Source: a virus
Length of the DNA stretch: 64,000 nucleotides
Virus record (IMG/VR): IMGVR_UViG_3300007735_000800
Coordinates: 1 to 64,000 of that record
Reading direction: 5' to 3' (one strand)
Part shown: piece by piece, positions 3,464-36,068 of the stretch
Numbering within the stretch: the first letter of the stretch is position 1
Layout: every line of letters begins with the position of its first letter
Position numbers and translations under genes: made by a program
Notes under the pieces: generated by a model
Told to the model about the DNA's origin: nothing
Databases searched by the model: none
Seen by the model: the letters and a program-made list of their open reading frames with translations, nothing else

Positions 3464-4093
3464 TTAGTCTCCGGTGTAGTGTCCGAATGGTGCATTAGGA
3501 TTTCTTGGTCTTCCTTTTGAATCTCTTCGACCCATTATGATGTCTGCTCTGAGGTTCTCATCTTCCACGAATTGATTGTGTTCTGGGCGTGCATTCAATT
3601 CTTTTCTAGTGAGGTCTCTGAGAACGACCAATCCCCTGGCTTGATCTTTTAGGTCCTGTGGATCGACATAGGATTGGCTGAATTGCTTCATTGCATTTTG
3701 GCGGGCTGCGCTGCTAAATTTGTATGAGGAAAGTGGACGACCTCTGTAATTGGTTCCGGAGATATGGGCTTTCAGGGCATCGGATTTTCTTGTAGACATT
3801 TCTCTATACAAATCTTCGATTGCTCTGTTCTGTCTACTTAGATTGCGGTCAATCCTAGCATATTCACGGTTCGGGTATCGTCCACCAAAACTGTCAACAC
3901 GCAAATCTCCTTCTTGGTCATCTCTCATGGTTGCTGTGTTTGGTGGCGGATCTCCAGCATCATTGTATGCTGTGGTCAGTGGAATGAAATTTGGACGACC
4001 CATTTCATTCAAGGTAATTTGTTTTTCAAGAATCAACTTTGCGTTGTGCTGTAGATTATTTGTAAAATTTAAATTATCCGTTGAAAATCTCAT
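3464..4093 (-). CDS. hypothetical, putative internal protein (ILE/LNE processing-like motifs near N-terminus)
   Basis: ORF coupled to the upstream paralog operon. Confidence 0.65.
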   Translation of the reverse strand: MRFSTDNLNFTNNLQHNAKLILEKQITLNEMGRPNFIPLTTAYNDAGDPPPNTATMRDDQEGDLRVDSFGGRYPNREYARIDRNLSRQNRAIEDLYREMSTRKSDALKAHISGTNYRGRPLSSYKFSSAARQNAMKQFSQSYVDPQDLKDQARGLVVLRDLTRKELNARPEHNQFVEDENLRADIIMGRRDSKGRPRNPNAPFGHYTGD

Positions 4094-4094
4094 T

Positions 4095-4565
4095 TTAGTT
4101 TTTCTTTCTGTGCTTCCTGGTTTTTAGAAACGAAATTGCCTGACGTAGGTCGGAGACATCTGCAACTCCCTCATTCTCAAATTCTGTTCCAAATACTTTT
4201 GCATATTTTTTCTGTGATCTTCGAATGTCAGCGTCAAGAGCTCTGATCTTGGGACTTCCTGGAACCTTTGGTCCAGAACGCTTTATGTCTCCAACGACGC
4301 GTTTGAATGATTTAACTTGTTGAGGATTGATTCCATGAGACTGTGGAGATTCAATTGCCTTTTCAAGAGCGATCAAGTCATCCATCCGCAGCATCCCTGC
4401 TTTCTGGCCTCTTAATTTTCTTCTTTCATCTGGATCATGTATCTCAGCTTCAACTAATGCGTTAAATAAAATATCATCTAATTGGGCTTCTTGAATTTGC
4501 CTTACTGCATCATGGTAATTGTTTGAAAGATTTAAATGATCTTTAAATGGATTGTAATTTTTCAT
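4095..4565 (-). CDS. putative internal protein, NPFxDHLNLS family
   Basis: N-terminus MKNYNPFKDHLNLSNNYHDAVRQIQEA paralogous to 4567..5064. Confidence 0.7.
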   Translation of the reverse strand: MKNYNPFKDHLNLSNNYHDAVRQIQEAQLDDILFNALVEAEIHDPDERRKLRGQKAGMLRMDDLIALEKAIESPQSHGINPQQVKSFKRVVGDIKRSGPKVPGSPKIRALDADIRRSQKKYAKVFGTEFENEGVADVSDLRQAISFLKTRKHRKKN

Positions 4566-4566
4566 T

Positions 4567-5064
4567 TTATAATGTGTAGGTTGTTGAGTAACGTCCGAGG
4601 GTATTTTTTGAAGTTGGTCCAGAAATTATTCTTGTATTAAAATCAGTAGAATCTGGTTCCCAATAATTTGGAAGATTTATTCCAGCAATTCCCCTTTCAC
4701 GCAATTTTTTAATTTCATCGGGAGTTAGCACACCAGAAGTAGGAGACATGCCAGCAGCAATTCTAACTTTTCCGGAAAAAGTTCTACCCGATCTTTCTGC
4801 GGCTCTCATTTCTTTTCTTTTTTCTGTCTCTGCGGCAATGGCATCCAGTTCTTCTCTAGTTCGCATTCTGGAACTTCTTTCTTTTGGGGAACTGAAACCT
4901 CTAATAAAATCCGAATGAGTAACTCTACTGCCCCCTACATACGGACCACGTGAATCACCTATTCTTGTTCCAGGAATAATTTTGGCTTCCAAAATTTGTT
5001 TAGCCGCATCATATAAATTTGGAGAAAGATTTAAGTGATCGTTGAAAGGGTTGCAGTTATTCAT
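4567..5064 (-). CDS. putative internal protein, NPFxDHLNLS family
   Basis: MNNCNPFNDHLNLSPNLYDAAKQILEA; C-terminal TLGRYSTTYTL similar to that of 5067..5510. Confidence 0.7.
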   Translation of the reverse strand: MNNCNPFNDHLNLSPNLYDAAKQILEAKIIPGTRIGDSRGPYVGGSRVTHSDFIRGFSSPKERSSRMRTREELDAIAAETEKRKEMRAAERSGRTFSGKVRIAAGMSPTSGVLTPDEIKKLRERGIAGINLPNYWEPDSTDFNTRIISGPTSKNTLGRYSTTYTL

Positions 5065-5066
5065 TT

Positions 5067-5510
5067 TTAGAACCTATATGTTTGTGAATATTTTCCAAGA
5101 GTGCCGGATGTACCCATACTACCAAGATTTTTTTCACTTGCAGATAATATTCTTCTTCTAGAAGAATAATTATAATCATCAGCGGGATTCCATGTATCTG
5201 GAAGATCTATCTGTGGTATATTCTTTAATTCATCATTTCTTTTTTTGTCTTCTACATAATCACTAAAATCACGAGGTTTACCATAGTTAAAACCAAATGG
5301 AAAGCCAGGAGTGCCTGGTGGTACTTGTGTATTTCTTTTTTTATTTCTAGTTCTTGGATCTAATCTAGAGTCACCTGGGCGATATGGTCTTTTTCGTTTA
5401 GGAGGATCAGGAGGTCCTCCACCAAATCCACCTCCACCTTCCAATAAAGAATAAATTCTTTTTTCAAGGTCTTCGCATAGCTTTTTATAATAAAGAGCAG
5501 TATAATCCAT
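5067..5510 (-). CDS. putative internal protein, MDY..YYK.L family
   Basis: MDYTALYYKKLCEDLEKRIYSLLE; AATAAATA 5 nt upstream. Confidence 0.7.
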   Translation of the reverse strand: MDYTALYYKKLCEDLEKRIYSLLEGGGGFGGGPPDPPKRKRPYRPGDSRLDPRTRNKKRNTQVPPGTPGFPFGFNYGKPRDFSDYVEDKKRNDELKNIPQIDLPDTWNPADDYNYSSRRRILSASEKNLGSMGTSGTLGKYSQTYRF

Positions 5511-5514
5511 AAAA

Positions 5515-5958
5515 TTATTTATTATTTTTTAATTCCTGGATTTTATCAAACAATTTTTCTTTTTCAGCATCAACAGAAACCGTCAAATTTATTAAATTTA
5601 GTTTTTCAATATCGTACTCCTCAATTTTCTTTTTTCTTATCAAAGAATCTTTTGGAATATTTGGATCATAATTGCTGAATCCAGGCATCTTTAATGGACA
5701 AGTGAGGTAAGGATAATCTAATTTGGCATAGACTCCCTCTTCTCTCATTAACCATGTATGCGAGTGATCACCACAACCACATCTACCACAATAGTAAAAA
5801 CTTGATTTTTCACTAGCCTTTAAATTTTGACATGGTCTGATTTCATCATTTCCATAACAAGAAATATATCGTAATTTTTTTGTTTCTGGATCTGTTTTTT
5901 TATTTGAAGTTCCACGGGAGGCTATTGCCATAGCCAACAACATCATTTTTTTTATCAT
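5515..5958 (-). CDS. Cys-rich metal-binding protein (CGxCGC...CP)
   Basis: RYISC...PC...YCGRCGCGD...LTCPL; related to 20251..20814. Confidence 0.7.
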   Translation of the reverse strand: MIKKMMLLAMAIASRGTSNKKTDPETKKLRYISCYGNDEIRPCQNLKASEKSSFYYCGRCGCGDHSHTWLMREEGVYAKLDYPYLTCPLKMPGFSNYDPNIPKDSLIRKKKIEEYDIEKLNLINLTVSVDAEKEKLFDKIQELKNNK

Positions 5959-6578
5959 GGTGTTTGATATAAAGCTATAGTTCCAGCAGGATAAACGTAT
6001 TGTTCCAAGAATGGTTTATATTTACTTGGAACATTTGCCCTTACTATAAAAAATCCTGCTGAACTTGTATCTATTATAACATCATCTTGAGGTAAGTTGA
6101 GCAATGTGGTTAAAAGATATTTTATTGCTTTTGGTGAACCTTTTAAGTTAAAATAATTTGCATCAGCCTGTATTGCAAATTTTTTTATGTTGTCTAGTAA
6201 ATCACGATTATCCGATGTGGATGAAAAATCGGCACCAGGAAAATATACATCTGCCAGACATTCTAAGAGAGAATTGTTTATTCTCTGTGGATCGTGAATT
6301 GTTTCCCACTCAATGTACGCACCATATCCATGCTCAACGCTAAAAAGCCATCTTAAATAAGATTTTACTATTTGTACTATTGTAACATTATCTGGATCAT
6401 TTTCTGATTCTCTTATTATCCAATTAGGAAACAATGATTGTATTGTTAGATCGTCACCCTTCCAATATTCTCCCTGAATTGCATAAAAATCAGATCCATA
6501 TGTGCTCTTTGCTATATTAACAAATTCATTAATCTTTCTCTCTAAGCTAACCGGAATGTGATTGAATAATAATATCAT
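5955..6578 (-). CDS. short baseplate wedge protein, gp7-like / P2 gpI-like
   Basis: follows gp6; IKKF...YFNLKGSPKAIKYLLTTL motif. Confidence 0.6.
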   Translation of the reverse strand: MILLFNHIPVSLERKINEFVNIAKSTYGSDFYAIQGEYWKGDDLTIQSLFPNWIIRESENDPDNVTIVQIVKSYLRWLFSVEHGYGAYIEWETIHDPQRINNSLLECLADVYFPGADFSSTSDNRDLLDNIKKFAIQADANYFNLKGSPKAIKYLLTTLLNLPQDDVIIDTSSAGFFIVRANVPSKYKPFLEQYVYPAGTIALYQTP

Positions 6579-7651
6579 TGTGTATATACCAAATTTATTC
6601 CCGCAACTGCTCTGTCTGAAAGATATGAAATAAGGGCTGTTGAATTTTCAGATGAAAGGCCATCAACGTAAATATTTACGGTGCAGGGTGCTACAGTTGA
6701 ATTTGCGACAGTTATGTCACTTGACTGTGTTATTCCGCCAATGTTGGAATTTAAAATTGCTTTTTCGTAGTCATCTAATGTGACACATCTGTGTTGTGCA
6801 GTTGCAGCAAATTGAACTTTTGCCTTTGCTGTTTCTGGAACTAGATAATCGTAACCCCCATCCGGAGTATCAGATGTCAAGAAAGTTATTCCAGTTATTG
6901 GAGAGACAGATCCCTGGTTTCCTTTTGCTCCATTTGATATGACTGCTTTGCAATAAACTGTATACGCGGTTGTTATTGAAAATGATTCTGGTAGATTTGT
7001 TGTTACCAAATATCCATTTGAAGTATTCAGAACTGTAAAATAATATTGCCCAGATGAATTTTCAGTGCTTGATTTGTCAACCTTTGTCCATTTTGTTTCT
7101 GTTCCGGAATTATCTACCATATAAAAACTTATGGTATCTGGATCTACTGTTAGAGGTAATATAATTGAATTGGAAGTATAATCCCAATTTGTATACTGTC
7201 CTATGGCTGTCCCGCAGTATAAGGTTATGGTCTGCGCAGAACTGGCTGGAACACTTTCTGTGTTAAAAAATAATATGGAACTTCCATCGGTAGCAGTTCC
7301 ATTAAACGGGGTGTAGTCTGACAATGCGGTTCCAGAAGTTTGAACATTTACTGTTGTGCTAGCTGATTTTTTTACCTCCAGCAATACCGAAGCATTTGAA
7401 GCAGCTCCAACTATTGAAGGCAACAAAGATGCAGTTGATAAAAATGATTCTTTGTATCCAAATTGTGAGTATATTCCATTGTATGCGGTTGCTGTAGCTA
7501 AAATGTCAACTAACATGCTAGCAGCACTGGCATTATTGTCAAAATCGATATCCGAAAGAGTTGGTTCACTTTTCAAAAAGTTTTTTATTGATGTTACTAT
7601 TGATGTGTAATCCAAAGAAGCCACATTTAAATTTTTAAATTGAAGAGTCAT
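6575..7651 (-). CDS. gp6: baseplate wedge subunit gp6 (short, 358 aa)
   Basis: LNVASLDYTSIVTSIKNFLKSEPTLSDIDF..SAASMLVDILA; C-terminal RCVTLDDY; start at MTLQ overlapping gp25 stop. Confidence 0.8.
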   Translation of the reverse strand: MTLQFKNLNVASLDYTSIVTSIKNFLKSEPTLSDIDFDNNASAASMLVDILATATAYNGIYSQFGYKESFLSTASLLPSIVGAASNASVLLEVKKSASTTVNVQTSGTALSDYTPFNGTATDGSSILFFNTESVPASSAQTITLYCGTAIGQYTNWDYTSNSIILPLTVDPDTISFYMVDNSGTETKWTKVDKSSTENSSGQYYFTVLNTSNGYLVTTNLPESFSITTAYTVYCKAVISNGAKGNQGSVSPITGITFLTSDTPDGGYDYLVPETAKAKVQFAATAQHRCVTLDDYEKAILNSNIGGITQSSDITVANSTVAPCTVNIYVDGLSSENSTALISYLSDRAVAGINLVYTQ

Positions 7652-20815: not shown

Positions 20816-23488
20816 TTAAAATATATTGAAGGTAAATGAGGTCACATTGTCTTGACATACTGTTGTTGCATTTGGTAGATCAGTATCTTGACACGGTGTA
20901 CAAAGTCCAGCTGGCCAGACACACCAGTTGTATGATGCACTACCATCTGTTTGGTCACAATCAATTCTAACTTTACATAGATAAGTTGGATCGGCAGTTC
21001 CAACTGTGTCGCTAACATATCCACAACGACTTATCCAAGGTCCCCAATGAGAATTTAAGTTTGAATAACTTTCTTCCCAATCCCATTGAGATATTCTTGA
21101 TTCTGTATATCTTTCAGCATACGATCCAACATTTGGCAATTCCTTCGCGTCTACAAATGCCGATACAGTTTGCTTTAAATGATATCCAAGTGGAGTTACA
21201 TAAAATTTTACAATTGCTGTGGGGTTATCTACTGTTCCACCCAAACTATACTCCGGAGTTGCCCAGTCAATATAATCACCACCACAGTTATAAGAGTTTT
21301 CTTTCCTTCTGCTATACCAAACTTTTGCATTTGCTTCCATTGTGAATGGAGCGCCCATTGAATTGAATGCACTGGCAATTTTTGATAATTTTAATGCTTT
21401 TGATTCATCTATTTTTACAATATATCCAGCTTCTGGAAAATTTCCATTTGTTGCACACATACTAATGTTGGTATACCCATCTGGTGTAGGATAAAAAACT
21501 GGTAAAGGTATACCTGAGGGATTTGTTATGTCAAAATTTGGTGGGAGACATTGATAAGTTATCGTAAGACCTACTTGTCTTTCATTTTCTAATAGCGCTT
21601 CTGCTTGGTAATCAGGTGGATGTGAAGACAGATTATAAGTTATATTTTTAGAACCATCTAATACTGGGTCTACAGGCAATCCCATAGGGGCACTGTACCC
21701 AAGATCGCTGAAATATGTTGTCAAGATACCAGACATAGATATGTCTTGTCTTCGGCCAGTCGGAATACATCTTCCACCAGATATTTCTGTACATGGAAAG
21801 CTATTCCACCATTCCGCAACACACGTTTCACCAGTAAAAATAAAATTTAAACAATCTGGTTCAACTATACAACATTTTTCATATACATCAGGTTCTACAA
21901 TCCTTGTGCATTGGTTGGTCGTATTGCTGCACAAATCTGAAATATATTCATTCCACGTATTTACTCCATTTGGCAATTGTGTATATACCGGTTCTACACA
22001 TATTTTTTTTGCATTTAAAGATTCTAGAGTGGTTCCCCATTCAAACCATCCCGGTTGAATTTTACTTATTAAATAATAATACCCCCTGTATATTCCTATA
22101 TAAATATCAGGATAATCCTCTAGTTTATCCGGATCACAGCAAATAACATTTTGTGGTGCTTCATCGCATCCACATGATGCACAAAAACCAGGAACTTTAC
22201 ACTGTCTTGTTCCAAAAAGATAACGACAGCAGGGGGAATAAAATCCACCGATACCACCACCGTAAAGCGCATTATATGCATCACATAGAGCACCCTCTCC
22301 ACCAGTACACTCTCCAAAAGGAGCCCATTTTATATCTTCTGGCATAGTGTTTGGGTCATCGCTTTTAAAAACAGATTCGCATGTTTCTGGGCATGTTCCA
22401 GGAATTAATAAGTATGATTCTCCACCCAAAGTAAAAGTAATACCATAAACACGAAAACCAGATGGATCTGGACCAGCTTGGTCTATCAAGTAATCGTATT
22501 GTGCTTGATTTAAGCATAAAAATAACGGACCTGTTGGGACATCGTTTATAGCATCTCCACATGGACACCAACGATCTATCCAATAAGCGACTACTTCACC
22601 ACCCAATCCAGATGGATTCGTATTTTCTATTCCTCCTGGTTGACCATTTTGTTTTGCACCAGATTTTCTGTTTCCTCCGAATCCGGCGTATCTGGATATA
22701 AATGGATTACACATAGCCCCGGGACCATCATCGGAACCATCAAATGCATACTTTATTCTGTTTAAATTTTGAGTACTAGATCCGCCACCACCACCAGAAG
22801 AATCTCCACCGCCACCTCCACCAAACTTACCACCACCACCACCACCGCCCAAACCAAGATTAAATGGTGTTTGAGTTTGAAATGCACCTCTACCGCCCCT
22901 TGTTACATTTCCAGCAGTTGCATTTCCACCACCAGGAGCTCCTGGAGAAGTTTGTGAAGCGCCTTTGCCTCCATTTAAACCTGAACCAATTACTCCAGAG
23001 GTAATTCCTCCATGACCACCATATCCCACCACGCCTCTTCCAGAACCACCACCACCAGCCACAATCGCTCCAGAATGGCTCGTTGCGGTAGCATTGATTC
23101 CCAGTACACTTCCACCTCCACCCATCCCAGCGGTCGTATACGCAACACCACCGCCAGCATATCCTGTTGAATTTTGTCCGGTATTTCCTGCAGTACCACC
23201 TGCACCGGCTAAAATTTTATAATTTAATTGGGCATTTATTTTATATTCTGCGTATGCTGCATTACCACCTTTAGATGCAGTATTGCTGTTGGCCCCACCA
23301 CCACCGCCACGAGAAATATATAAAACATCACGAGAGCTATCAAAATTACCATTTACGTTTGGTCTATTTAAAAGATTTGGAAATATGGTAGTTGAGGAAT
23401 TGTTGGATATGACTATAGTTGCAAACGCCTTGCATGGAATAGCTATATAAGTTCCACCAGGCTCACAGCAACATGCTTTTTTAGTCAT
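20816..23488 (-). CDS. large Gly-rich and Cys-rich putative tail fibre / receptor-binding protein
   Basis: MTKKACCC start; GGGGG repeats of glycine-rich domain type; about 39 Cys; TATAAATA at 23504-23511 plus SD. Confidence 0.65.
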   Translation of the reverse strand: MTKKACCCEPGGTYIAIPCKAFATIVISNNSSTTIFPNLLNRPNVNGNFDSSRDVLYISRGGGGGANSNTASKGGNAAYAEYKINAQLNYKILAGAGGTAGNTGQNSTGYAGGGVAYTTAGMGGGGSVLGINATATSHSGAIVAGGGGSGRGVVGYGGHGGITSGVIGSGLNGGKGASQTSPGAPGGGNATAGNVTRGGRGAFQTQTPFNLGLGGGGGGGKFGGGGGGDSSGGGGGSSTQNLNRIKYAFDGSDDGPGAMCNPFISRYAGFGGNRKSGAKQNGQPGGIENTNPSGLGGEVVAYWIDRWCPCGDAINDVPTGPLFLCLNQAQYDYLIDQAGPDPSGFRVYGITFTLGGESYLLIPGTCPETCESVFKSDDPNTMPEDIKWAPFGECTGGEGALCDAYNALYGGGIGGFYSPCCRYLFGTRQCKVPGFCASCGCDEAPQNVICCDPDKLEDYPDIYIGIYRGYYYLISKIQPGWFEWGTTLESLNAKKICVEPVYTQLPNGVNTWNEYISDLCSNTTNQCTRIVEPDVYEKCCIVEPDCLNFIFTGETCVAEWWNSFPCTEISGGRCIPTGRRQDISMSGILTTYFSDLGYSAPMGLPVDPVLDGSKNITYNLSSHPPDYQAEALLENERQVGLTITYQCLPPNFDITNPSGIPLPVFYPTPDGYTNISMCATNGNFPEAGYIVKIDESKALKLSKIASAFNSMGAPFTMEANAKVWYSRRKENSYNCGGDYIDWATPEYSLGGTVDNPTAIVKFYVTPLGYHLKQTVSAFVDAKELPNVGSYAERYTESRISQWDWEESYSNLNSHWGPWISRCGYVSDTVGTADPTYLCKVRIDCDQTDGSASYNWCVWPAGLCTPCQDTDLPNATTVCQDNVTSFTFNIF

Positions 23489-24924: not shown

Positions 24925-25384
24925 GGTAATACTTTCTATACGCAACAACAGCGTTGCTATCTTTATATTGATCTGGCATTGCTTGAGCAAAGGGAGTCAA
25001 GGACCCCTTTGGGATATTAACAGGAATATCATAAAGTTCATCCAAAAGCATTTGCTCCATAACATGAACTTTATTGTATCTACGGGTATACTCTTTGCAA
25101 AGAGCATATGCATGTCTCCAAAGCCACATGTAATTGGCCTTTGTCTCTCTGGCCCAAATAGTGCATGGGTGATTAACCATCGTAGCCTTGCAGATATTTT
25201 TCTTCGTACAAATAAATGTCTTGTATTTTCTCTTACCAGTATTGACCTCAAGAGGATCGCCATCCAAAACATGGTGTGCGGTAGAAAGCAACTGGCAAGA
25301 TTCAAGAATCATCTTGACGACATGTTTATCGCACATCATTCGGGCAGAAGTTGCAGCGTCACTGTCAAGTACAAAAATATTCAT
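24821..25384 (-). CDS. denV: pyrimidine-dimer DNA glycosylase (DenV-like family)
   Basis: MNIFVLD....ARMMCDKHVVKMILESCQLLSTAH; NHPCTIWAR; YRKYY..EK..FAKW. Confidence 0.8.
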   Translation of the reverse strand: MNIFVLDSDAATSARMMCDKHVVKMILESCQLLSTAHHVLDGDPLEVNTGKRKYKTFICTKKNICKATMVNHPCTIWARETKANYMWLWRHAYALCKEYTRRYNKVHVMEQMLLDELYDIPVNIPKGSLTPFAQAMPDQYKDSNAVVAYRKYYLNEKVRFAKWSYSEEPDWWVAKTADVPCDVAIPF

Positions 25385-26412
25385 ATTTCATTGCTCTCAA
25401 ATACGTTGTTAATGGTTCTGTTGACTCTTATCAGTCTACCACGATTATAGAGATCTGGCAAGTCAAAAGCACCAACATATGAACAAGCAGATCTAATCCC
25501 ACCAAAAATTTCTTGAATGGTCTTTTTTACAGATCCCTTATAAGGAACCTCAACTGTTCTTCCTTCAGAGGCTCTGTAATCAGAAAGACCACCATTGTAT
25601 TTTTCATTTGCTGTTTTACTACTCATTCCGTAATGGAGCATTTTTAGCTCTCCATGTTCTCCATGTCTTATTTCACCGCCACACTCATCGTGACCGGCAA
25701 AGATACCACCAGCCATCACAAATGCAGCACCAGCAACAAATGATTTTGCAAAATCACCTGGATGAATTATACCACCATCAGCAACGATCCCAATACCTAA
25801 CGCATTTGCGGTTTCCACACACTCTAGCACCGCTGAGAGCTGTGGGTACCCCACTCCGGCTATTCTCCTGGTCAAACACATTGATCCCGATCCTATTCCC
25901 ACTTTTACCAGATCTGCACCAGCCTCTGACAATGCCACGACCCCCTCTGGGGTTACTATATTTCCTGCAATCAATATCGATTTCGGCCATTTTTGTCTAA
26001 CCTTTCTTGTAAAATTATGAAATTCTTTCATGTAGCCATTAGCTACATCTACGCAAACAAATGTAGGGTCACTTATACTTGATGTGTCTACAAACAATTT
26101 ACTATCAGAATCCAATCCAAGAGTTAAAGTTACATATTTTTCTCTATCAGGATAGCTTGTAGCAAAGTTAGAATAATAGTCTCCACCTTTTCTCAGACAC
26201 GTAACAACTTTATATTCTGAAAGAGCCAAGGCCATATTGTGTGTTCCTATTGTTGACATATTTGCCGCCATAATAGGAACTCCAGACCAAGTTGATCCTG
26301 AATTTAAAACAGTATCCACTTCAAGGGATACATCTTTTCTAGATTTTACATCACTTATTCCCGGTACAATCAGAACATCATTATAATCTAATTTAGTGTC
26401 GTTTATTGTCAT
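25381..26412 (-). CDS. guaC: GMP reductase
   Basis: LDYNDVLIVP..SRKDVSL; KVGIGSGSMCLTR; GYPQLSAV; YGMSS; YRASEGRTVEVPYKG. Confidence 0.93.
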   Translation of the reverse strand: MTINDTKLDYNDVLIVPGISDVKSRKDVSLEVDTVLNSGSTWSGVPIMAANMSTIGTHNMALALSEYKVVTCLRKGGDYYSNFATSYPDREKYVTLTLGLDSDSKLFVDTSSISDPTFVCVDVANGYMKEFHNFTRKVRQKWPKSILIAGNIVTPEGVVALSEAGADLVKVGIGSGSMCLTRRIAGVGYPQLSAVLECVETANALGIGIVADGGIIHPGDFAKSFVAGAAFVMAGGIFAGHDECGGEIRHGEHGELKMLHYGMSSKTANEKYNGGLSDYRASEGRTVEVPYKGSVKKTIQEIFGGIRSACSYVGAFDLPDLYNRGRLIRVNRTINNVFESNEI

Positions 26413-27799: not shown

Positions 27800-27837
27800 A
27801 AAAATTATTCCTCTAGTTATTTATCATAAATATTCAT

Positions 27838-28639: not shown

Positions 28640-29290
28640 ATGCCAACAAACCCATACTTTTCCAATTATCAAGGAGAACAGGATTTAGTAGAAGGTATCA
28701 CGATAGAAGTGATACAAGCTACTGGCGTGGATTGTATTTACATACCTAGAGAATATTTGTCAATTGATAAAATTTTTGGAGAAGACCCTGGTTCATATTT
28801 TAATAATGCATATAAATTGGAGATGTACTTACAAAGTTATAAAGGTTTTGAAGGTACCGACATTGTTACGCAATTTGGCCTTGAAATACGAGATAAAGTT
28901 TACTTGGTATTTGCAAGAAAAAGATTTAAACAAGAAGTTACAGATAAAAATTCTAATATTAAAAGACCCAGAGAAGGTGATTTAATTTATTTTCCACCTT
29001 CAAAATCTTTATTTGAGATAAACTTTGTAGAACATGAAAATCCATTTTATCCTCTTGGAAGACTGTATTCTTATTTCATAACCGCAGAGTTGTTCACTTA
29101 TAGCTATGAAAAAGTACAAACACCGATTGATCAAATCAATAAGGTCATGTCAGAAACAAGACAAACAAATTATGAAAACATGTTTGTATTAAATAATGGA
29201 ACGGGATCGTTTAATCCCGGAGATACGGTTCAATTATATACATCAACTATACCATTTCCAAATACATTTAACTTTAATGAGATCACATAA
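28640..29290 (+). CDS. gp14: neck protein gp14, N-terminal part
   Basis: TNPYF; EQDLVEGITIEVIQ; RPREGDLIYFP..LFEINFVEHENPFYPLG; lacks the NPFG tail. Confidence 0.9.
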   Translation: MPTNPYFSNYQGEQDLVEGITIEVIQATGVDCIYIPREYLSIDKIFGEDPGSYFNNAYKLEMYLQSYKGFEGTDIVTQFGLEIRDKVYLVFARKRFKQEVTDKNSNIKRPREGDLIYFPPSKSLFEINFVEHENPFYPLGRLYSYFITAELFTYSYEKVQTPIDQINKVMSETRQTNYENMFVLNNGTGSFNPGDTVQLYTSTIPFPNTFNFNEIT

Positions 29291-29292
29291 CT

Positions 29293-31986
29293 ATGGGATA
29301 CTTATGGAATAGATCATCTAGGCAACCAATACCCTACACCCATATAATGGGTTGGGGTAAGGTTGGAAATATTTTAAGTTACGGCACCAAGACATCTTTA
29401 AATGACTTTGCCGGAACAATTTCCTTTATAGAAGCAAGACCAACAGCATTTGGATTTAGTTATGAAGATGCGAATGTTTCCATGGAAAATGCTGTATTTT
29501 CTGGAAATATTGGTTGGGGAATATTTACAAAAAATGATGGTACAAAAATAACTAAAGGTGAAATGCAAGTAAATAATAATTCCATTCCATTAGATGTTCT
29601 CAGACCATGGTCATATTTAATAAGTGGTGCATCTGCTTACAATATAAATTTGGTAAATTCAAATATCATTTGCGCTGGTAGCAATTATTTTTTGGCTGCT
29701 TATGGAAACACTTTAATTGGTTTTGGTGGAAATTCGTATGGACAATGCAACCCACCAATTACTTCTACTGCAAATTTAATTCAAGTTTCAGCTGGATTTG
29801 GTCATTCGGTTGCTCTCTATAATGATGGGACAATATCTTCATGGGGGTTAAATAATAAAAACCAAACATCTGTTCCAGTTGGTTTAACGGCGAGTCAAAT
29901 AGCATCTGGTTATTATCATAATATTGCACTTAAGGGAGATAAAACTGTAGTATGCTGGGGTTCAAACGATGAAGGGCAGTGCAATGTCCCAGCGGGATTA
30001 AGTGGAATATCTTTTATTGCTGCTGGATTCAGACACAGTTTGGCAATAAGAGAAAATGGAACTGTTGTTTGTTGGGGTGACAATTCCAGCGGCCAATGTA
30101 ACGTTCCAGCTGGTGCAACTGGAGCTGCACAGATTGCCGGGGGTTCGGCACACACAGCTTTGTTGAAAGCCGATGGAAGTGTACTGTGTTGGGGTGGGAC
30201 TGGATTCAGACAATCCATTTTACCTGTTTTTCCGGATACAGCGTCAGATCCAGCAACACAATATGCAATATTTAAAAATCGACTTTATTCTCCTCTTGGT
30301 ATAACTGGTGCGGCAACAAAAGTATTTTGTACCGAAAACGCAACTTTTGCTTTATGTACTGGAAAAAGAGATAGAGGAAATTATATGTGGGCGGCTGTAC
30401 CAGGTACACTCGGATTAACTGGATTGGTTGCGGTTTATGCAACGCAATTCTTAATGGGCCCAACAGGTGCAAGCGCTATGAGTGGAATGTCTTTCTATAC
30501 AAAGTTAGAAGGATATGATCCTACAAGACATGATTACTATACTTACCCCAGTCAACCATCATACGGTCAATCTGTGTGGCCAAATGGAATTAATACTGCT
30601 TGGTGGAGTAATCAAAAATTAGACAAATGTTGGGTATCTGGATATCAACCAAATGGTATTTACAAGATATATGATTCATATTTTTCACCACCTGATCTTA
30701 GTGGATGTTCTATTAGACCAAGGCAATGGGGTGCTCCTTGGATAGAAAGTTCTTTAGATGCTATGCACAATATTTTGGGTTATATTAGAAAAAATACAAC
30801 CGAATATGGTTGGAACAATTTTAATTCAGGATATTGGCCAAACATAATAATCACCAAAAAACACACAGTGTGCATCGGCCACTATGCAGGAAATAATACA
30901 AATCTTTATGGCGTAAGATGGTTGAGGCGAGATGGCACCGTTATAACAAGAGATTTGACAAGAATTTCTAATCTGTATTTTCAAAGTGTTGGTGTGAATC
31001 CAGATTTATACTTATACGAAATGAATACTGAATTAACTCAGGATGATTTAAATAATATTTCAGTATATAATGTATGGCCTAAATTTTCTGGATTTACTGG
31101 TTCTAAAACGATTGATACTTATGCATGGGTATGGAAAGGTTTAACTTACATAGATTACAACAGTATTGAAATGATGTCACAGGTAGGTCGTCGTCTATGG
31201 TATTTGGATGGGCAAGATAGAGTTTATTCTAAGAGAGTGTTGGGTACATATGCAAATCCACAAACAAATTATAGACCTACTATGTTAAAAACAATATCGG
31301 GCAAACCCCACAAATATGAACCGGATGATATTGAGTGCACCACTTTTCCTGGGGACAGTGGCACTCCTGTTTTTATAACAGCAGCAAGACAAACAGGATA
31401 CACTGAACCGTTGGAAGCCGCATATTTTGCGGGGCAGGGGATAACGGTAGGAAGAACTTTATTCTGTGGTACATTTGACTATGGAACCGGAGAATATGGA
31501 TCTACATTTGTTAATGAAATTAATTCTATTTTGATAAGCAGGGGTTTAACTGGAAATGAATTGATCAAACAAATAGATGTGGACTCTGTCGGTAAATCTC
31601 TACCATGGACTGCTCCTGTGACCGGATTTGACGAATACGCTTTGAATTCTAGTTCACCAAATTATTCAGGTGTTGTATCTGCAGCATTAGGAGGCCCAGA
31701 AACAAATACAGTCACCTTAATAGGTGAAGGTGTCGTAGATTCTTGGGATTCAACAAATAATATTTTGACGTTATCTGGTATAAGTGGTTCATTCCATACG
31801 CCAGGTTTAACATACTATTCTATAATACAAAATTTAAATGATTCTACTGTAAATTATTCGAAAATAAATCCATATATTATTCCAATAAATAATGGTTTGG
31901 GGACAACGGCTGGATCTAACAACATATTAGAATCTGAAGCAGCAGGATATACTTTTGATCCTAACAATCCATTTGGAGATGAATAA
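29293..31986 (+). CDS. RCC1/BLIP-II repeat + trypsin-like protease domain + gp14-type C-terminus
   Basis: WG.N..GQCNVP...IAAG..HS repeats; CIGHY, PDLYL, PGDSGTP triad motifs; ends LESEAAGYTFDPNNPFGDE. Confidence 0.75.
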   Translation: MGYLWNRSSRQPIPYTHIMGWGKVGNILSYGTKTSLNDFAGTISFIEARPTAFGFSYEDANVSMENAVFSGNIGWGIFTKNDGTKITKGEMQVNNNSIPLDVLRPWSYLISGASAYNINLVNSNIICAGSNYFLAAYGNTLIGFGGNSYGQCNPPITSTANLIQVSAGFGHSVALYNDGTISSWGLNNKNQTSVPVGLTASQIASGYYHNIALKGDKTVVCWGSNDEGQCNVPAGLSGISFIAAGFRHSLAIRENGTVVCWGDNSSGQCNVPAGATGAAQIAGGSAHTALLKADGSVLCWGGTGFRQSILPVFPDTASDPATQYAIFKNRLYSPLGITGAATKVFCTENATFALCTGKRDRGNYMWAAVPGTLGLTGLVAVYATQFLMGPTGASAMSGMSFYTKLEGYDPTRHDYYTYPSQPSYGQSVWPNGINTAWWSNQKLDKCWVSGYQPNGIYKIYDSYFSPPDLSGCSIRPRQWGAPWIESSLDAMHNILGYIRKNTTEYGWNNFNSGYWPNIIITKKHTVCIGHYAGNNTNLYGVRWLRRDGTVITRDLTRISNLYFQSVGVNPDLYLYEMNTELTQDDLNNISVYNVWPKFSGFTGSKTIDTYAWVWKGLTYIDYNSIEMMSQVGRRLWYLDGQDRVYSKRVLGTYANPQTNYRPTMLKTISGKPHKYEPDDIECTTFPGDSGTPVFITAARQTGYTEPLEAAYFAGQGITVGRTLFCGTFDYGTGEYGSTFVNEINSILISRGLTGNELIKQIDVDSVGKSLPWTAPVTGFDEYALNSSSPNYSGVVSAALGGPETNTVTLIGEGVVDSWDSTNNILTLSGISGSFHTPGLTYYSIIQNLNDSTVNYSKINPYIIPINNGLGTTAGSNNILESEAAGYTFDPNNPFGDE

Positions 31987-32657
31987 TGTTTCCCAATGAA
32001 TACTATAATAATAGAAGTTTAAGAAAATTGGTAGTAGGTTTTGGATCTCTATTCAGTGATATAAACATTCATCATACTATGAAATCTGGTAATGCGAGTG
32101 AAGATATACAGATCAAAGTACCAATAACCTACGCACCACAAGAAAAATTTATTAGAAGATTGTTGGAACCATCATCAATTTCAGATGGAACAAGAATAGA
32201 AACTCAACTTCCAAAAATGAGTTATATAATGAGCTCCGTCAATCCCGATCCTTCTAGAAGAATAAACAAATTAACTTCTCTTCAAGCTACTACCGGGTCT
32301 GCTGGAGATTGTAGTAACACTGGATATGAAGTAACAGAAAGAATTCCGGTAAACGTAGCTTTTGTCTTGTATCTATATACAAGACATATAGATGATACTC
32401 TTCAAATAGTAGAACAAATTTTGCCTTATTTTAATCCAGATCACATAATTTCCATGGACATGAATAATGCACAAACCGATGTACGAATTCCAATTACATT
32501 AGTTTCAAATAACATAAATGAAAAATTTGATGGTGATTTTGGTGGTAGACGTGTAAACATATCATCATTATCTTTTGTTGCAAAATCATTTATATACGGA
32601 AAAGTAAAAGAACTTACAAAAATAGACACGTTTGACATAAATATTGATAGTCTTTAA
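31986..32657 (+). CDS. gp15: tail sheath stabiliser / terminator gp15
   Basis: YYNNRSLRKLVVGFGSLFSDI; VPITYAPQEKF; QIVEQILPYFNP. Confidence 0.93.
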   Translation: MFPNEYYNNRSLRKLVVGFGSLFSDINIHHTMKSGNASEDIQIKVPITYAPQEKFIRRLLEPSSISDGTRIETQLPKMSYIMSSVNPDPSRRINKLTSLQATTGSAGDCSNTGYEVTERIPVNVAFVLYLYTRHIDDTLQIVEQILPYFNPDHIISMDMNNAQTDVRIPITLVSNNINEKFDGDFGGRRVNISSLSFVAKSFIYGKVKELTKIDTFDINIDSL

Positions 32658-34736: not shown

Positions 34737-34769
34737 AATTATAAATATTTTTATAATTTAGGGAAAACC

Positions 34770-36068
34770 ATGACAACAATACCCCCAACCTTTAATTCTT
34801 TTGTGACCCCATCAGTATATTCGACACAAAATACAACAAATGATTTGTATGTAGGTTTTGTAGCTGGAAATACTTATGTTGTACCTACCTTTGGAAATGC
34901 GGGTGCTTGCGCTACCACGGTTGATCCCGGTGGTCTATTCGGATGGTTAATATATTCAAGAACAAGTATTGCCAACCCTGCAAAAGGTTTAACGAGTGAC
35001 CAATATCTTTTATATTCTACTCCAACAGATTTCTTGAATGACTTAAATGCACTAAAAGGTGTGACACAGTGTGTTTTGTCTTTGGCTAATTCGGGTGGGA
35101 CCTATTCCTTCTTTACAAGAAATGCGGCAACCTCTAGTAATGTAGGTTCAACAATAACACCAACAACTATAGGTGCTGACTTTTTACATGCTTTGCATGC
35201 TCTTGCATATGGTGTAAATTTGGTAATAACCGGAACAACCGGTGGTTTAGAAAATTTTGATTTAATAAATTCAAGTAATATAGAAGTTTTGATGGGACAA
35301 ACTGCAAATGCATCTCTGTCTAGTTATTTGTTAGACAATCCATATGTTGTTGGAATATTCCCTTCTAATGGTTATACTGCAGCAAATTTTGATTTATTTA
35401 TTCCCAGTGGCGTAACAAATGCAGATTTTACTGATAGAATTTTCAATATTTACGGTAATGTAAACTACAACATTTCAACATCAACATTATACGCAAATTC
35501 TACGATGAATTATACTACGACACCAGTAGCCCATGTTGTAGGTGCATTTGCAAATTCTAAAAATCAAAATCAATACTATTTAACAGTTGCCGGTGACAAT
35601 CTTTCAGTACCGTTAAATGGAAAAATCTCCAATCCAATATCATGGTACACAACTACAAAGAAAGACATATTTAAAAAGAACAGAGTAAATTTTTATACTT
35701 ATGTTTCCACTCCTTTCTTGGGTTCAGACTTAGTCGGTGCCACTGCCGGAACAAGCACTTCTTATACATCCGATGAAAGAATTGGTGTTGCAAATCTAAA
35801 GAATACAATAGAAAAATCAGTCAATGATATTTTGTTGACATATTTATTCAATGTAAATAACTCGATTACCAGGGCTTCTATAACCACTCAAGTTGAACTT
35901 TATATTGAATCTATAAATGAATATTTGGTTCCCTCCGCAACAATAATAACTTGTGATGGAACCAATAACACAGATAATTCTTCCACACTCACTGTCGATA
36001 TAACAGTAAAACCAATACAATCTGCATCTGAGCTAGTGATCAGGGTTTCGGTTTCTGACGTAGCATAA
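34770..36068 (+). CDS. gp18: tail sheath gp18 (short, divergent)
   Basis: C-terminal ERIGVANL...LFNVNNSITR...CDGTNNT...VDITVKP; canonical position; TATAAATA 34740-34747. Confidence 0.8.
   Translation: MTTIPPTFNSFVTPSVYSTQNTTNDLYVGFVAGNTYVVPTFGNAGACATTVDPGGLFGWLIYSRTSIANPAKGLTSDQYLLYSTPTDFLNDLNALKGVTQCVLSLANSGGTYSFFTRNAATSSNVGSTITPTTIGADFLHALHALAYGVNLVITGTTGGLENFDLINSSNIEVLMGQTANASLSSYLLDNPYVVGIFPSNGYTAANFDLFIPSGVTNADFTDRIFNIYGNVNYNISTSTLYANSTMNYTTTPVAHVVGAFANSKNQNQYYLTVAGDNLSVPLNGKISNPISWYTTTKKDIFKKNRVNFYTYVSTPFLGSDLVGATAGTSTSYTSDERIGVANLKNTIEKSVNDILLTYLFNVNNSITRASITTQVELYIESINEYLVPSATIITCDGTNNTDNSSTLTVDITVKPIQSASELVIRVSVSDVA

Follow-up and report, generated by a model that had tools for sequence, protein, structure and literature searches.

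A gp14 neck protein split into two chains in a T4-like phage, the second carrying a β-propeller and a predicted trypsin-like protease

In T4-like phages, the neck is commonly regarded as a passive and conserved joint. It was resolved at the atomic level only in 2026, in the in-situ T4 structure (PMC12929629). Here we analyze a neck locus in a stretch of 64,000 nucleotides (the window), which comprises positions 1 to 64,000 of the 126-kb IMG/VR virus record IMGVR_UViG_3300007735_000800 and derives from an uncultured T4-like phage. In this locus, the place of the neck protein gp14 is occupied by two adjacent open reading frames (ORFs). The first encodes a gp14 of 216 amino acids (aa) that lacks the C-terminal end of the family (chain 1), and the second encodes a protein of 897 aa that ends with the missing part and carries a β-propeller and a predicted serine protease ahead of it (chain 2). 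We consider it probable, at roughly 65%, that the two chains together constitute a two-chain gp14, with a propeller–protease collar held in place by pairing of the divided β-barrel and by a hook on gp15.

The closest described protein is T4 gp14 (PDB 9lu4 and 9mkb; PMC12929587, PMC12929629), a single 256-aa chain without an insertion domain. In its C-terminal region (residues 212-245), an acidic helix and a hook wrap around the gp15 hexamer, with five salt bridges per subunit; until the tail docks, this region is disordered (PMC12929629). In addition, two loops of the T4 gp14 core (residues 65-76 and 100-111) contact gp15 (PMC12929629). The pair of chains in the window resembles T4 gp14 in its position between gp13 and gp15, in its PF11649 core, and in the acidic C-terminal region with which the family sequences end. 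It differs from T4 gp14 in that the core and the C-terminal region are located on different chains, and in that about 800 residues containing the propeller and the protease precede the C-terminal part. The insertion point, between the core (residues ~175-190) and the C-terminal tail, is shared with the intact gp14 of cyanophage-type T4-like phages (291 aa in P-RSM6, 287 aa in Melnitz, 284-377 and 559 aa in metagenomic sequences). These proteins contain the same β-barrel, uncut and on a single chain, and harbor inserts without a recognized enzyme, whereas the window clade adds the propeller and the protease and has the gene split.

Accessory proteins displayed around the neck are found in other phages. 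The neck appendages of the podovirus phi29, formed by gp12, are enzymatic. In T4, the fibritin collar and whiskers sit on domain III of gp13 (PMC12929629). The module of the window would resemble both in its display around the neck, but it has no sequence relation to either, and the anchoring differs, as fibritin binds gp13. We know of no protease among neck-mounted accessory proteins. The original prediction was aware of no description of such an arrangement, and we likewise found in the open-access full-text literature no report of a split gp14, of RCC1 repeats at a phage neck or a propeller–protease at a myovirus neck, or of a virion trypsin-like protease.

Chain 1 matches Pfam PF11649 with an E-value of 1.7e-41 (142.9 bits, cut-off 25) and PHROG 679/460 ('head closure Hc2') with an E-value of 1.6e-57. 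The Pfam match covers only positions 31-201 of the 278 profile positions, and past GTGSFNPGDTVQLY the chain ends in a non-conserved tail. The core and the C-terminal tail-binding region are therefore not found on a single polypeptide here and, judged from the sequences, it is the pair of chains, and neither chain alone, that corresponds to a gp14. The end of chain 1 contains a conserved hairpin (G-S/T-G-x-F-x-x-G-D-x-V), in which 10 sequences of the split clade all have G187, G189, and F191 and nearly all have G194; the residues beyond it drift. This part of the chain aligns to approximately positions 172-215 of the profile of intact gp14, which correspond to strands E175-184 and E200-203 of a model described below.

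Chain 2 is encoded in the -1 frame relative to chain 1, and the TGA at 29278-29280 closes its frame upstream. These observations bear out the original prediction, which regarded gp14 as truncated and, on account of the differing frames and this TGA, regarded the two ORFs as separate chains. The two-ORF arrangement is also upheld by a survey of the gp14-gp15 interval in relatives. A single-sequence search of viral contigs with chain 2 found no relatives and an alignment-based search was needed; by this means, 15 loci with a full-length relative of chain 2 were found in IMG/VR. All nine distinct loci that show both genes (L004, L006, L007, L011-L015, and L018; duplicates are L005, L016/L056, and L017) contain gp13, a short gp14 of 204-225 aa, the large ORF of 886-1076 aa, and gp15.

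The part missing from chain 1 is located at the end of chain 2, as had been predicted. A profile of the last ~140 residues of the chain 2 family was compared by hhalign with a profile of 49 intact gp14, and the two align end to end (profile positions 216-305) with a probability of 95% and an E-value of 3.6e-8. In addition, positions 206-293/296 of a hidden Markov model (HMM) built from the 49 intact long gp14 of related viral contigs fall on residues 808-896 of chain 2, and the same HMM aligns in like manner to the large ORFs of six relatives. The last 35 residues of chain 2 share 60-83% identity with the C-terminus of intact 216-225-aa gp14 from the loci L057-L065 (BLASTP). These loci are the closest relatives with an unsplit gp14, which is 62-82% identical to chain 1 over residues 1-190. 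Within the tail of chain 2, N867, G870, T871, G874, E882, and N891 are invariant among 17 homologs, and the tail is equally conserved in split and intact gp14, with 25 of 29 residues shared between the split L007 and the intact L061. Pairwise BLASTP of chain 2 against the intact gp14 of P-RSM6 and Melnitz gives marginal matches (E-values of 0.08 and 8e-4, respectively) with the correct placement, and the relationship had to be established with profiles. In Pfam, no family matches the C-terminal 127 or 197 residues or residues 1-136 of chain 2 at E-values up to 10. The tail of chain 2 is the likely counterpart of the helix and hook of T4 gp14, an equivalence that is positional and drawn through the family.

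The model of an intact long gp14 (L068), predicted by AlphaFold2 from a 49-sequence alignment, shows where the cut falls. The model has a predicted local distance difference test score (pLDDT) of 73. Its core (residues 1-156) superimposes on T4 gp14 (9lu4_M) with a Z score of 12.1. The core is followed by a β domain of about eight strands (residues 175-273), which is similar to a domain of a baseplate protein of Klebsiella phage KP1 (Z 8.5) and to barrels of the EF-Tu domain II type (Z ~5), then by a helix at residues 285-294 and the terminal tail. Mapped onto this model, the cut in the window gp14 falls inside the small β-barrel: its first strands remain on chain 1, and chain 2 receives the rest of the barrel together with the helix region and the tail. 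Complex prediction for chain 1 and the last 123 residues of chain 2, using family alignments, gives a score of 0.54 (0.54, 0.54, and 0.62 in the individual runs, which share at least 55% of their contacts), whereas the best of three controls scores 0.00. The mark used for such predictions was passed by 58 of 80 solved complexes and by 2 of 110 mismatched pairs; at scores of 0.60 or lower, it was passed by seven of the 80 solved complexes and by both of the passing mismatches. For the docking of the two chains by fragment complementation, which the original prediction had suggested, the predicted complex provides weak support, next to the conserved hairpin kept on chain 1.

In the arrangement that we favor, the hexameric neck protein gp14, which closes the head and receives the tail, would be made as two polypeptides from adjacent and probably co-transcribed late genes. 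Chain 1 would contribute the ring-forming core and the first strands of the β-barrel insertion domain. Chain 2 would contribute the propeller, the protease, a flexible linker, the remaining strands of the barrel, and the C-terminal tail of gp14. We infer that chain 2 is a virion protein at the neck-tail junction, where two contacts would hold it. Its barrel fragment would pair with the hairpin left on chain 1, and its C-terminal tail would clamp the gp15 ring in the manner of the T4 helix and hook, the latter contact, which did not figure in the original prediction, probably being the main anchor. Every intact gp14 in the survey has its tail on the same chain as the core, and chain 2 would be tied to chain 1 if the conserved tail still joins the neck to the tail. 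Up to six propeller–protease units may then ring the neck as an enzymatic collar, in which the propeller would bind and the protease would cut, at the host surface or in its surroundings; the original prediction had likewise proposed an adhesin-protease, possibly directed at a proteinaceous host coat. A role at the host surface would fit the module, because it is accessory and evolves faster than its neighbors.

Chain 2 might also be held only through its C-terminal tail on the gp15 ring, decorating the tail terminator with the barrel fragments unpaired, in which case the core loops would be the sole contact of chain 1 with gp15. The extensive interface that the hook alone forms with gp15 in T4 agrees with such an attachment, as do the core loops 65-76 and 100-111 that touch gp15 and the weakness of the predicted barrel pairing; moreover, the second split gp14 (L108/L102, see below) has no divided domain, being cut where the core meets the insert. 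We nevertheless regard an attachment through gp15 alone as unlikely. The chain 1 hairpin retains its invariant Gly/Gly/Phe in all members of the split clade, although the residues that follow drift, and a barrel without its first strands is unlikely to be stable alone. The score of 0.54 against three controls at 0.00 speaks in the same direction.

The propeller of chain 2 belongs to the RCC1/BLIP-II type. Pfam RCC1_2 matches the chain in four stretches (E-value 8.5e-37), and five clear WG...Q repeats can be read at approximately residues 140-315. The family profile of chain 2 finds, in the PDB, BLIP-II with an E-value of 2.2e-53 (profile positions 148-322), UVR8 with an E-value of 6e-30, and phiKZ gp131 with an E-value of 9e-10. 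If the propeller is a closed one of seven blades, the remaining repeats may come from the N-terminal 120 residues and from residues 315-356. BLIP-II is a tight protein binder, and phiKZ gp131 is a peripheral virion protein. The propeller of the window shares the RCC1_2 repeats with BLIP-II and with phiKZ gp131 (PDB 4gbf), but in contrast to both it is fused to a protease and a fragment of a neck protein. The gene call in the ESM Atlas starts at Met19 (29347), a residue that homologs do not conserve; the start at 29293 is preferred because residues 1-18 are conserved and all 17 homologs have Met1.

The propeller is followed by a domain with the predicted chymotrypsin fold (PA clan). The fold was recognized through remote homologs: a profile search of 1.84 billion representatives yielded 47 proteins with this domain at the N-terminus, while the whole-family profile before their addition found only RCC1 proteins in the PDB and no protease. 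With the remote homologs included, the profile matches kallikrein-4 (E-value 4.2e-5) as well as bacterial trypsins, thrombin, and the S6 autotransporter SepA, and in the kallikrein-4 alignment H530, D571, and S689 pair with His57, Asp102, and Ser195 of trypsin. Structure prediction agrees with this assignment. The model of residues 360-780, built from 13 sequences, has a pLDDT of 56 and a predicted template modeling score of 0.67, with a core that is predicted confidently near His530 and Asp571. All of the top 50 Foldseek matches of the model are trypsin-like proteases (E-value 6e-4, probability 1.0). VIA-align superimposes 185 residues of the model (within residues 53-390) on kallikrein-4 (chain residues 19-244) with a Z score of 11.9 and a root-mean-square deviation of 3.9. 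In the ESM Atlas, the neighbors of the protease fall into Peptidase_S6 and S1 clusters, several of which are viral.

The three candidate catalytic residues are invariant in three alignments and conserved in both the clade and the remote homologs. Among the latter, H524 and H530 are present in all 45 aligned sequences and D571 in all 33, and a single GDSG occurs in 41 of 47, located 80-145 residues past the Asp. In L018 (3326-6556), position 524 is occupied by Phe (N-R-K-F instead of T-K-K-H) and His530 is kept, so that H530 is the invariant His and, on this criterion, the candidate in preference to the otherwise conserved H524. The original prediction had pointed to about five RCC1/BLIP-II repeats and to the CIGHY, PDLYL, and GDSG motifs as signs of a trypsin-like protease; the repeats are confirmed by the profile matches, and the motifs stand where it had placed them, with a conserved triad that aligns to trypsin.

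The domain is related to the S1 (trypsin, kallikrein-4) and S6 (IgA1 protease, the SPATE autotransporters SepA and Hbp) proteases by the double β-barrel, the His-Asp-Ser order, and the GDSG motif. It is distinguished from them by ~10% identity, by large insertions (118 residues from Asp to Ser), by the motifs RHDxYxY and DFSGxSxRPR, and by its location within a phage structural protein. By these characters, it appears to represent a PA-clan family of its own whose predicted triad is intact, and a new one. The stand-alone members share the N-terminal H-D-x-Y-x-Y and the D-F-S-G-x-S-x-R-P-R motifs, and one remote homolog (P0029) passes the Pfam Peptidase_S6 cut-off (24.4 vs 23.3 bits). In another phage contig, a relative that is 94% identical to P0029 (L138:6001-7188) immediately follows baseplate wedge genes, and several stand-alone relatives (P0019-P0065) end in dockerin-like D-x-N-x-D-G repeats. 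Because of this neighborhood and these C-terminal repeats, the family looks like one of virion-associated or surface-acting enzymes.

An intact triad adjoining a long variable linker would also suit an enzyme of assembly or of self-processing, the latter having been raised in the original prediction. The protease could cut chain 2 itself, for example in the linker at residues 750-807, or trim neck or tail proteins during morphogenesis; self-cleavage would release the propeller–protease, and the virion would retain no more of chain 2 than its gp14-derived C-terminal piece. We consider this quite improbable, since the linker shows no visible conserved cleavage motif and close relatives assemble without such a protease. 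Moreover, the stand-alone relatives are located in baseplate or fiber gene clusters and often possess C-terminal extensions of a binding type, and the fast divergence of the chain would be unusual for a morphogenetic enzyme.

The module is accessory, being optional among near relatives, a point missing from the original prediction, as is the second split described below. Locus L061, which has no module, and L007, which has it, share 90% DNA identity along the 1343 bp of gp13 and the gp14 core, and 86% along the 833 bp of the tail and gp15. Between these flanks, L007 contains 3.16 kb (3805-6968) and L061 only ~70 bp (4742-4813). Close relatives have a linker of ~10 residues in place of the module, with the consensus T-R-G-L-S-G-S-x-I-I-P (T-K-G-L-S-G-G-V-I-I-P in L061). 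This linker looks like a collapsed remnant of the barrel, which makes repeated loss of the module plausible; exchange of the cassette by recombination may also have taken place. In a quick tree of the gp14 core with Shimodaira–Hasegawa-like approximate likelihood ratio test (SH-aLRT) support, the split and the short intact forms interleave in one clade (SH-aLRT 99), and well-supported branches force at least three changes between the split and the intact state. Among the viral-contig loci, no gene of the block diverges more than the large ORF, with 33-48% identity compared with 55-83% for gp13, gp14, gp15, and gp16.

The dispensability of the module in relatives might be taken to mean that chain 2 is not a virion protein at all, but a soluble late enzyme set free by lysis, its gp14-like end surviving as a relic of the insertion. 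Nothing direct favors this possibility, and we hold it to be very improbable. The relic would have to match the functional tail of intact gp14 in its conservation, and chain 1 would be left without the tail-binding piece that every surveyed intact gp14 keeps.

The split itself is not readily ascribed to recoding or to error. Programmed frameshifting or read-through was considered and rejected, as the -1 window measures 10 nucleotides (nt) and contains no slippery heptamer, and the relative frame varies among relatives. In the nine loci, the two ORFs are separated by spacers of 2-21 nt and lie in relative frames 0, 1, or 2, each with its own stop and start. A further 16 homologs in the protein database have the same architecture and the conserved Met1, none of them fused to a gp14 core, and no fused form of ~1100 aa was found among candidate proteins of 493-1570 aa. 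Because the nine distinct contigs vary in frame and spacer, chain 2 is conserved from Met1, and no fused homolog was found, frameshifting, read-through, and sequencing error are excluded, and the idea that an assembly artifact or gene decay broke one long gp14 by a frameshift, to which the two ORFs lying 2 nt apart in different frames might have pointed, is hardly credible.

Several points weigh against a propeller–protease collar on a two-chain gp14. The phage is uncultured, and both chains are known here from their genes alone. T4 gp14 shows no detectable similarity to the profile of the chain 2 C-terminus (probability 0.2%). The complex prediction supports the pairing weakly, and in it the partner has a pLDDT of at least 49 and its own fold is uncertain. 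Near Ser689, the confidence of the protease model is low (pLDDT 41-69), and no protease family of Pfam matches the window protein, either as a whole or as residues 401-736 at E-values up to 10. With regard to function, the neck of a myovirus stays tens of nanometers away from the cell surface after contraction, and an enzyme located there would reach only extended structures such as capsule, matrix, and appendages, or would act before adsorption. Finally, the module is not needed for assembly, because near relatives do without it.

Taken at its most specific, the proposed arrangement would consist of six active proteases and binding propellers that serve as a swappable neck collar and adjust the phage to the proteinaceous layer or appendage of its host (S-layer, pili, sheath, or matrix protein) that is bound or cut; we put this forward tentatively, as a possibility rather than an expectation. 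At the gp14 insertion site, one clade mounts a propeller together with a protease whose PA-clan family had not been named before, and the combination looks like an optional neck-mounted enzyme. If the docking is true, the locus shows how nature can attach cargo to a myovirus neck while leaving assembly undisturbed, and it suggests that phages may work on the host surface by proteolysis instead of by cleaving glycans. The appendage would also be the first one with enzymatic function at the neck of a myovirus, and its assembly into the virion would be a natural case of docking between the parts of a split protein. Near relatives with and without the module, having near-identical flanks, provide a ready comparison for its contribution.

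The segment between the gp14 core and the tail-binding hook is an insertion hot spot. In 80 loci, gp14 is 205, 213-225, 242-249, 284-320, 368-377, or 559 aa long, and the differences in length sit between the core and the tail. A second split is present in L108 (2328-4129) and L102 (4501-5468), where gp14 stops at 197-198 aa and the next ORF follows through an overlapping TAATG; the second ORF of L108 encodes 402 aa and ends in DFTEDNPFG, the gp14 tail. The fused 559-aa gp14 of L125 (3891-5570) matches both L108/L102 pieces (63% identity; 30%, E-value 3e-27). As in the window, the core and the tail-bearing part are encoded by separate ORFs. In contrast to the window, the insert consists of repeat domains without propeller or protease, the cut is located at a domain boundary and not inside the barrel, and the lineage is another one, placed in a different part of the gp14-core tree from the window clade. 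The split of gp14 thus appears to have arisen independently at least twice, and that of the window is less singular than it first seemed.

Extra domains are also found on the neighboring gene. Several gp15 homologs possess large C-terminal extensions (981 aa in L101:3038-5983, 493 aa in L105:1661-3142, 384 aa in L111:4932-6086, and 354 aa in L083:5439-6503, compared with the usual 220-290 aa), so the gp15 gene seems to serve as a mount as well. In addition, unrelated ORFs are located between an intact gp14 and gp15 in L119:5250-6809 (519 aa) and L106:5439-5996 (185 aa). The junction of gp14 and gp15 also takes free-standing genes, because these two ORFs end without a gp14 tail.

The features of the locus are collected in Table 1. 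The late structural block runs in the order gp13, gp14, the 897-aa ORF, gp15, gp16, and gp17, which is the same in relatives, and gp13 is 63-79% identical across related loci. The nearest isolates by the large terminase are Synechococcus myophages (~50% identity), and those nearest to the window gp14 are cyanophages and the Methylophilales phage Melnitz (~40% identity). The gp15 protein is the presumed receptor of the gp14-type hook on chain 2. The genes gp13 through gp17 look like one late transcription unit, because CATAAATA precedes gp13 and the next exact TATAAATA on the + strand occurs only at 34740, ahead of the following structural gene (pattern search). This promoter indication is weak, and TATAAATA is not enriched in the window (11 found vs 9.25 expected).

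Table 1. Coordinates of the neck locus in the window, with residues numbered on the respective chain.
Feature	Coordinates	Strand	Basis or remark
Late-promoter-like CATAAATA	27826..27833	+	5 nt upstream of the gp13 ATG; read from sequence
gp13 neck protein (head-tail adaptor Ad2), 266 aa	27838..28638	+	PHROG 211, E 1.2e-32
gp14 short chain (chain 1), 216 aa	28640..29290	+	Pfam PF11649, PHROG 679/460
gp14 core, residues 1-175 (N-terminal loop, helix, stopper loop, and core β-barrel of the neck hexamer)	28640..29164	+	
End of chain 1: first strands of the β-barrel insertion domain, variable tail, TAA	29165..29290	+	
Junction: upstream TGA 29278-29280, gp14 TAA 29288-29290, 2-nt spacer, ATG 29293	29278..29295	+	
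Large ORF (chain 2), 897 aa	29293..31986	+	RCC1_2, protease, gp14 end
N-terminal region and RCC1/BLIP-II-type β-propeller, residues 1 to ~356	29293..30360	+	
Predicted chymotrypsin-fold (PA clan) serine protease domain, residues 412-749	30526..31539	+	
Candidate catalytic His530	30880-30882	+	in CIGHY
Candidate catalytic Asp571	31003-31005	+	in PDLYL
Candidate catalytic Ser689	31357-31359	+	in G687-D-S-G690 (31351-31362)
Variable linker between the protease and the gp14-derived part, residues 750-807	31540..31713	+	poorly conserved, length varies (alignments)
Remainder of the gp14 β-barrel insertion domain, residues 808-862	31714..31878	+	hhalign, HMM; maps to strands E219-273 in the model of intact gp14
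gp14 C-terminal tail, residues 863-897 and stop	31879..31986	+	NNGLGTTAG, acidic segment, D-x-N-x-P-F end
gp15 tail terminator / sheath stabilizer	31986..32657	+	Pfam PF16724, E 1.8e-50; PHROG 227, E 1.7e-53

Beyond the neck genes, the 432-aa ORF that follows gp17 (34770-36068, +) occupies the position expected for the tail sheath gene and has no Pfam match, and neither has an 890-aa ORF on the opposite strand (20816-23488, -). Just upstream of the neck module, the window contains a gene of the IMP dehydrogenase / GMP reductase family (343 aa, 25381-26412, -), which matches PF00478 with an E-value of 1.6e-66.

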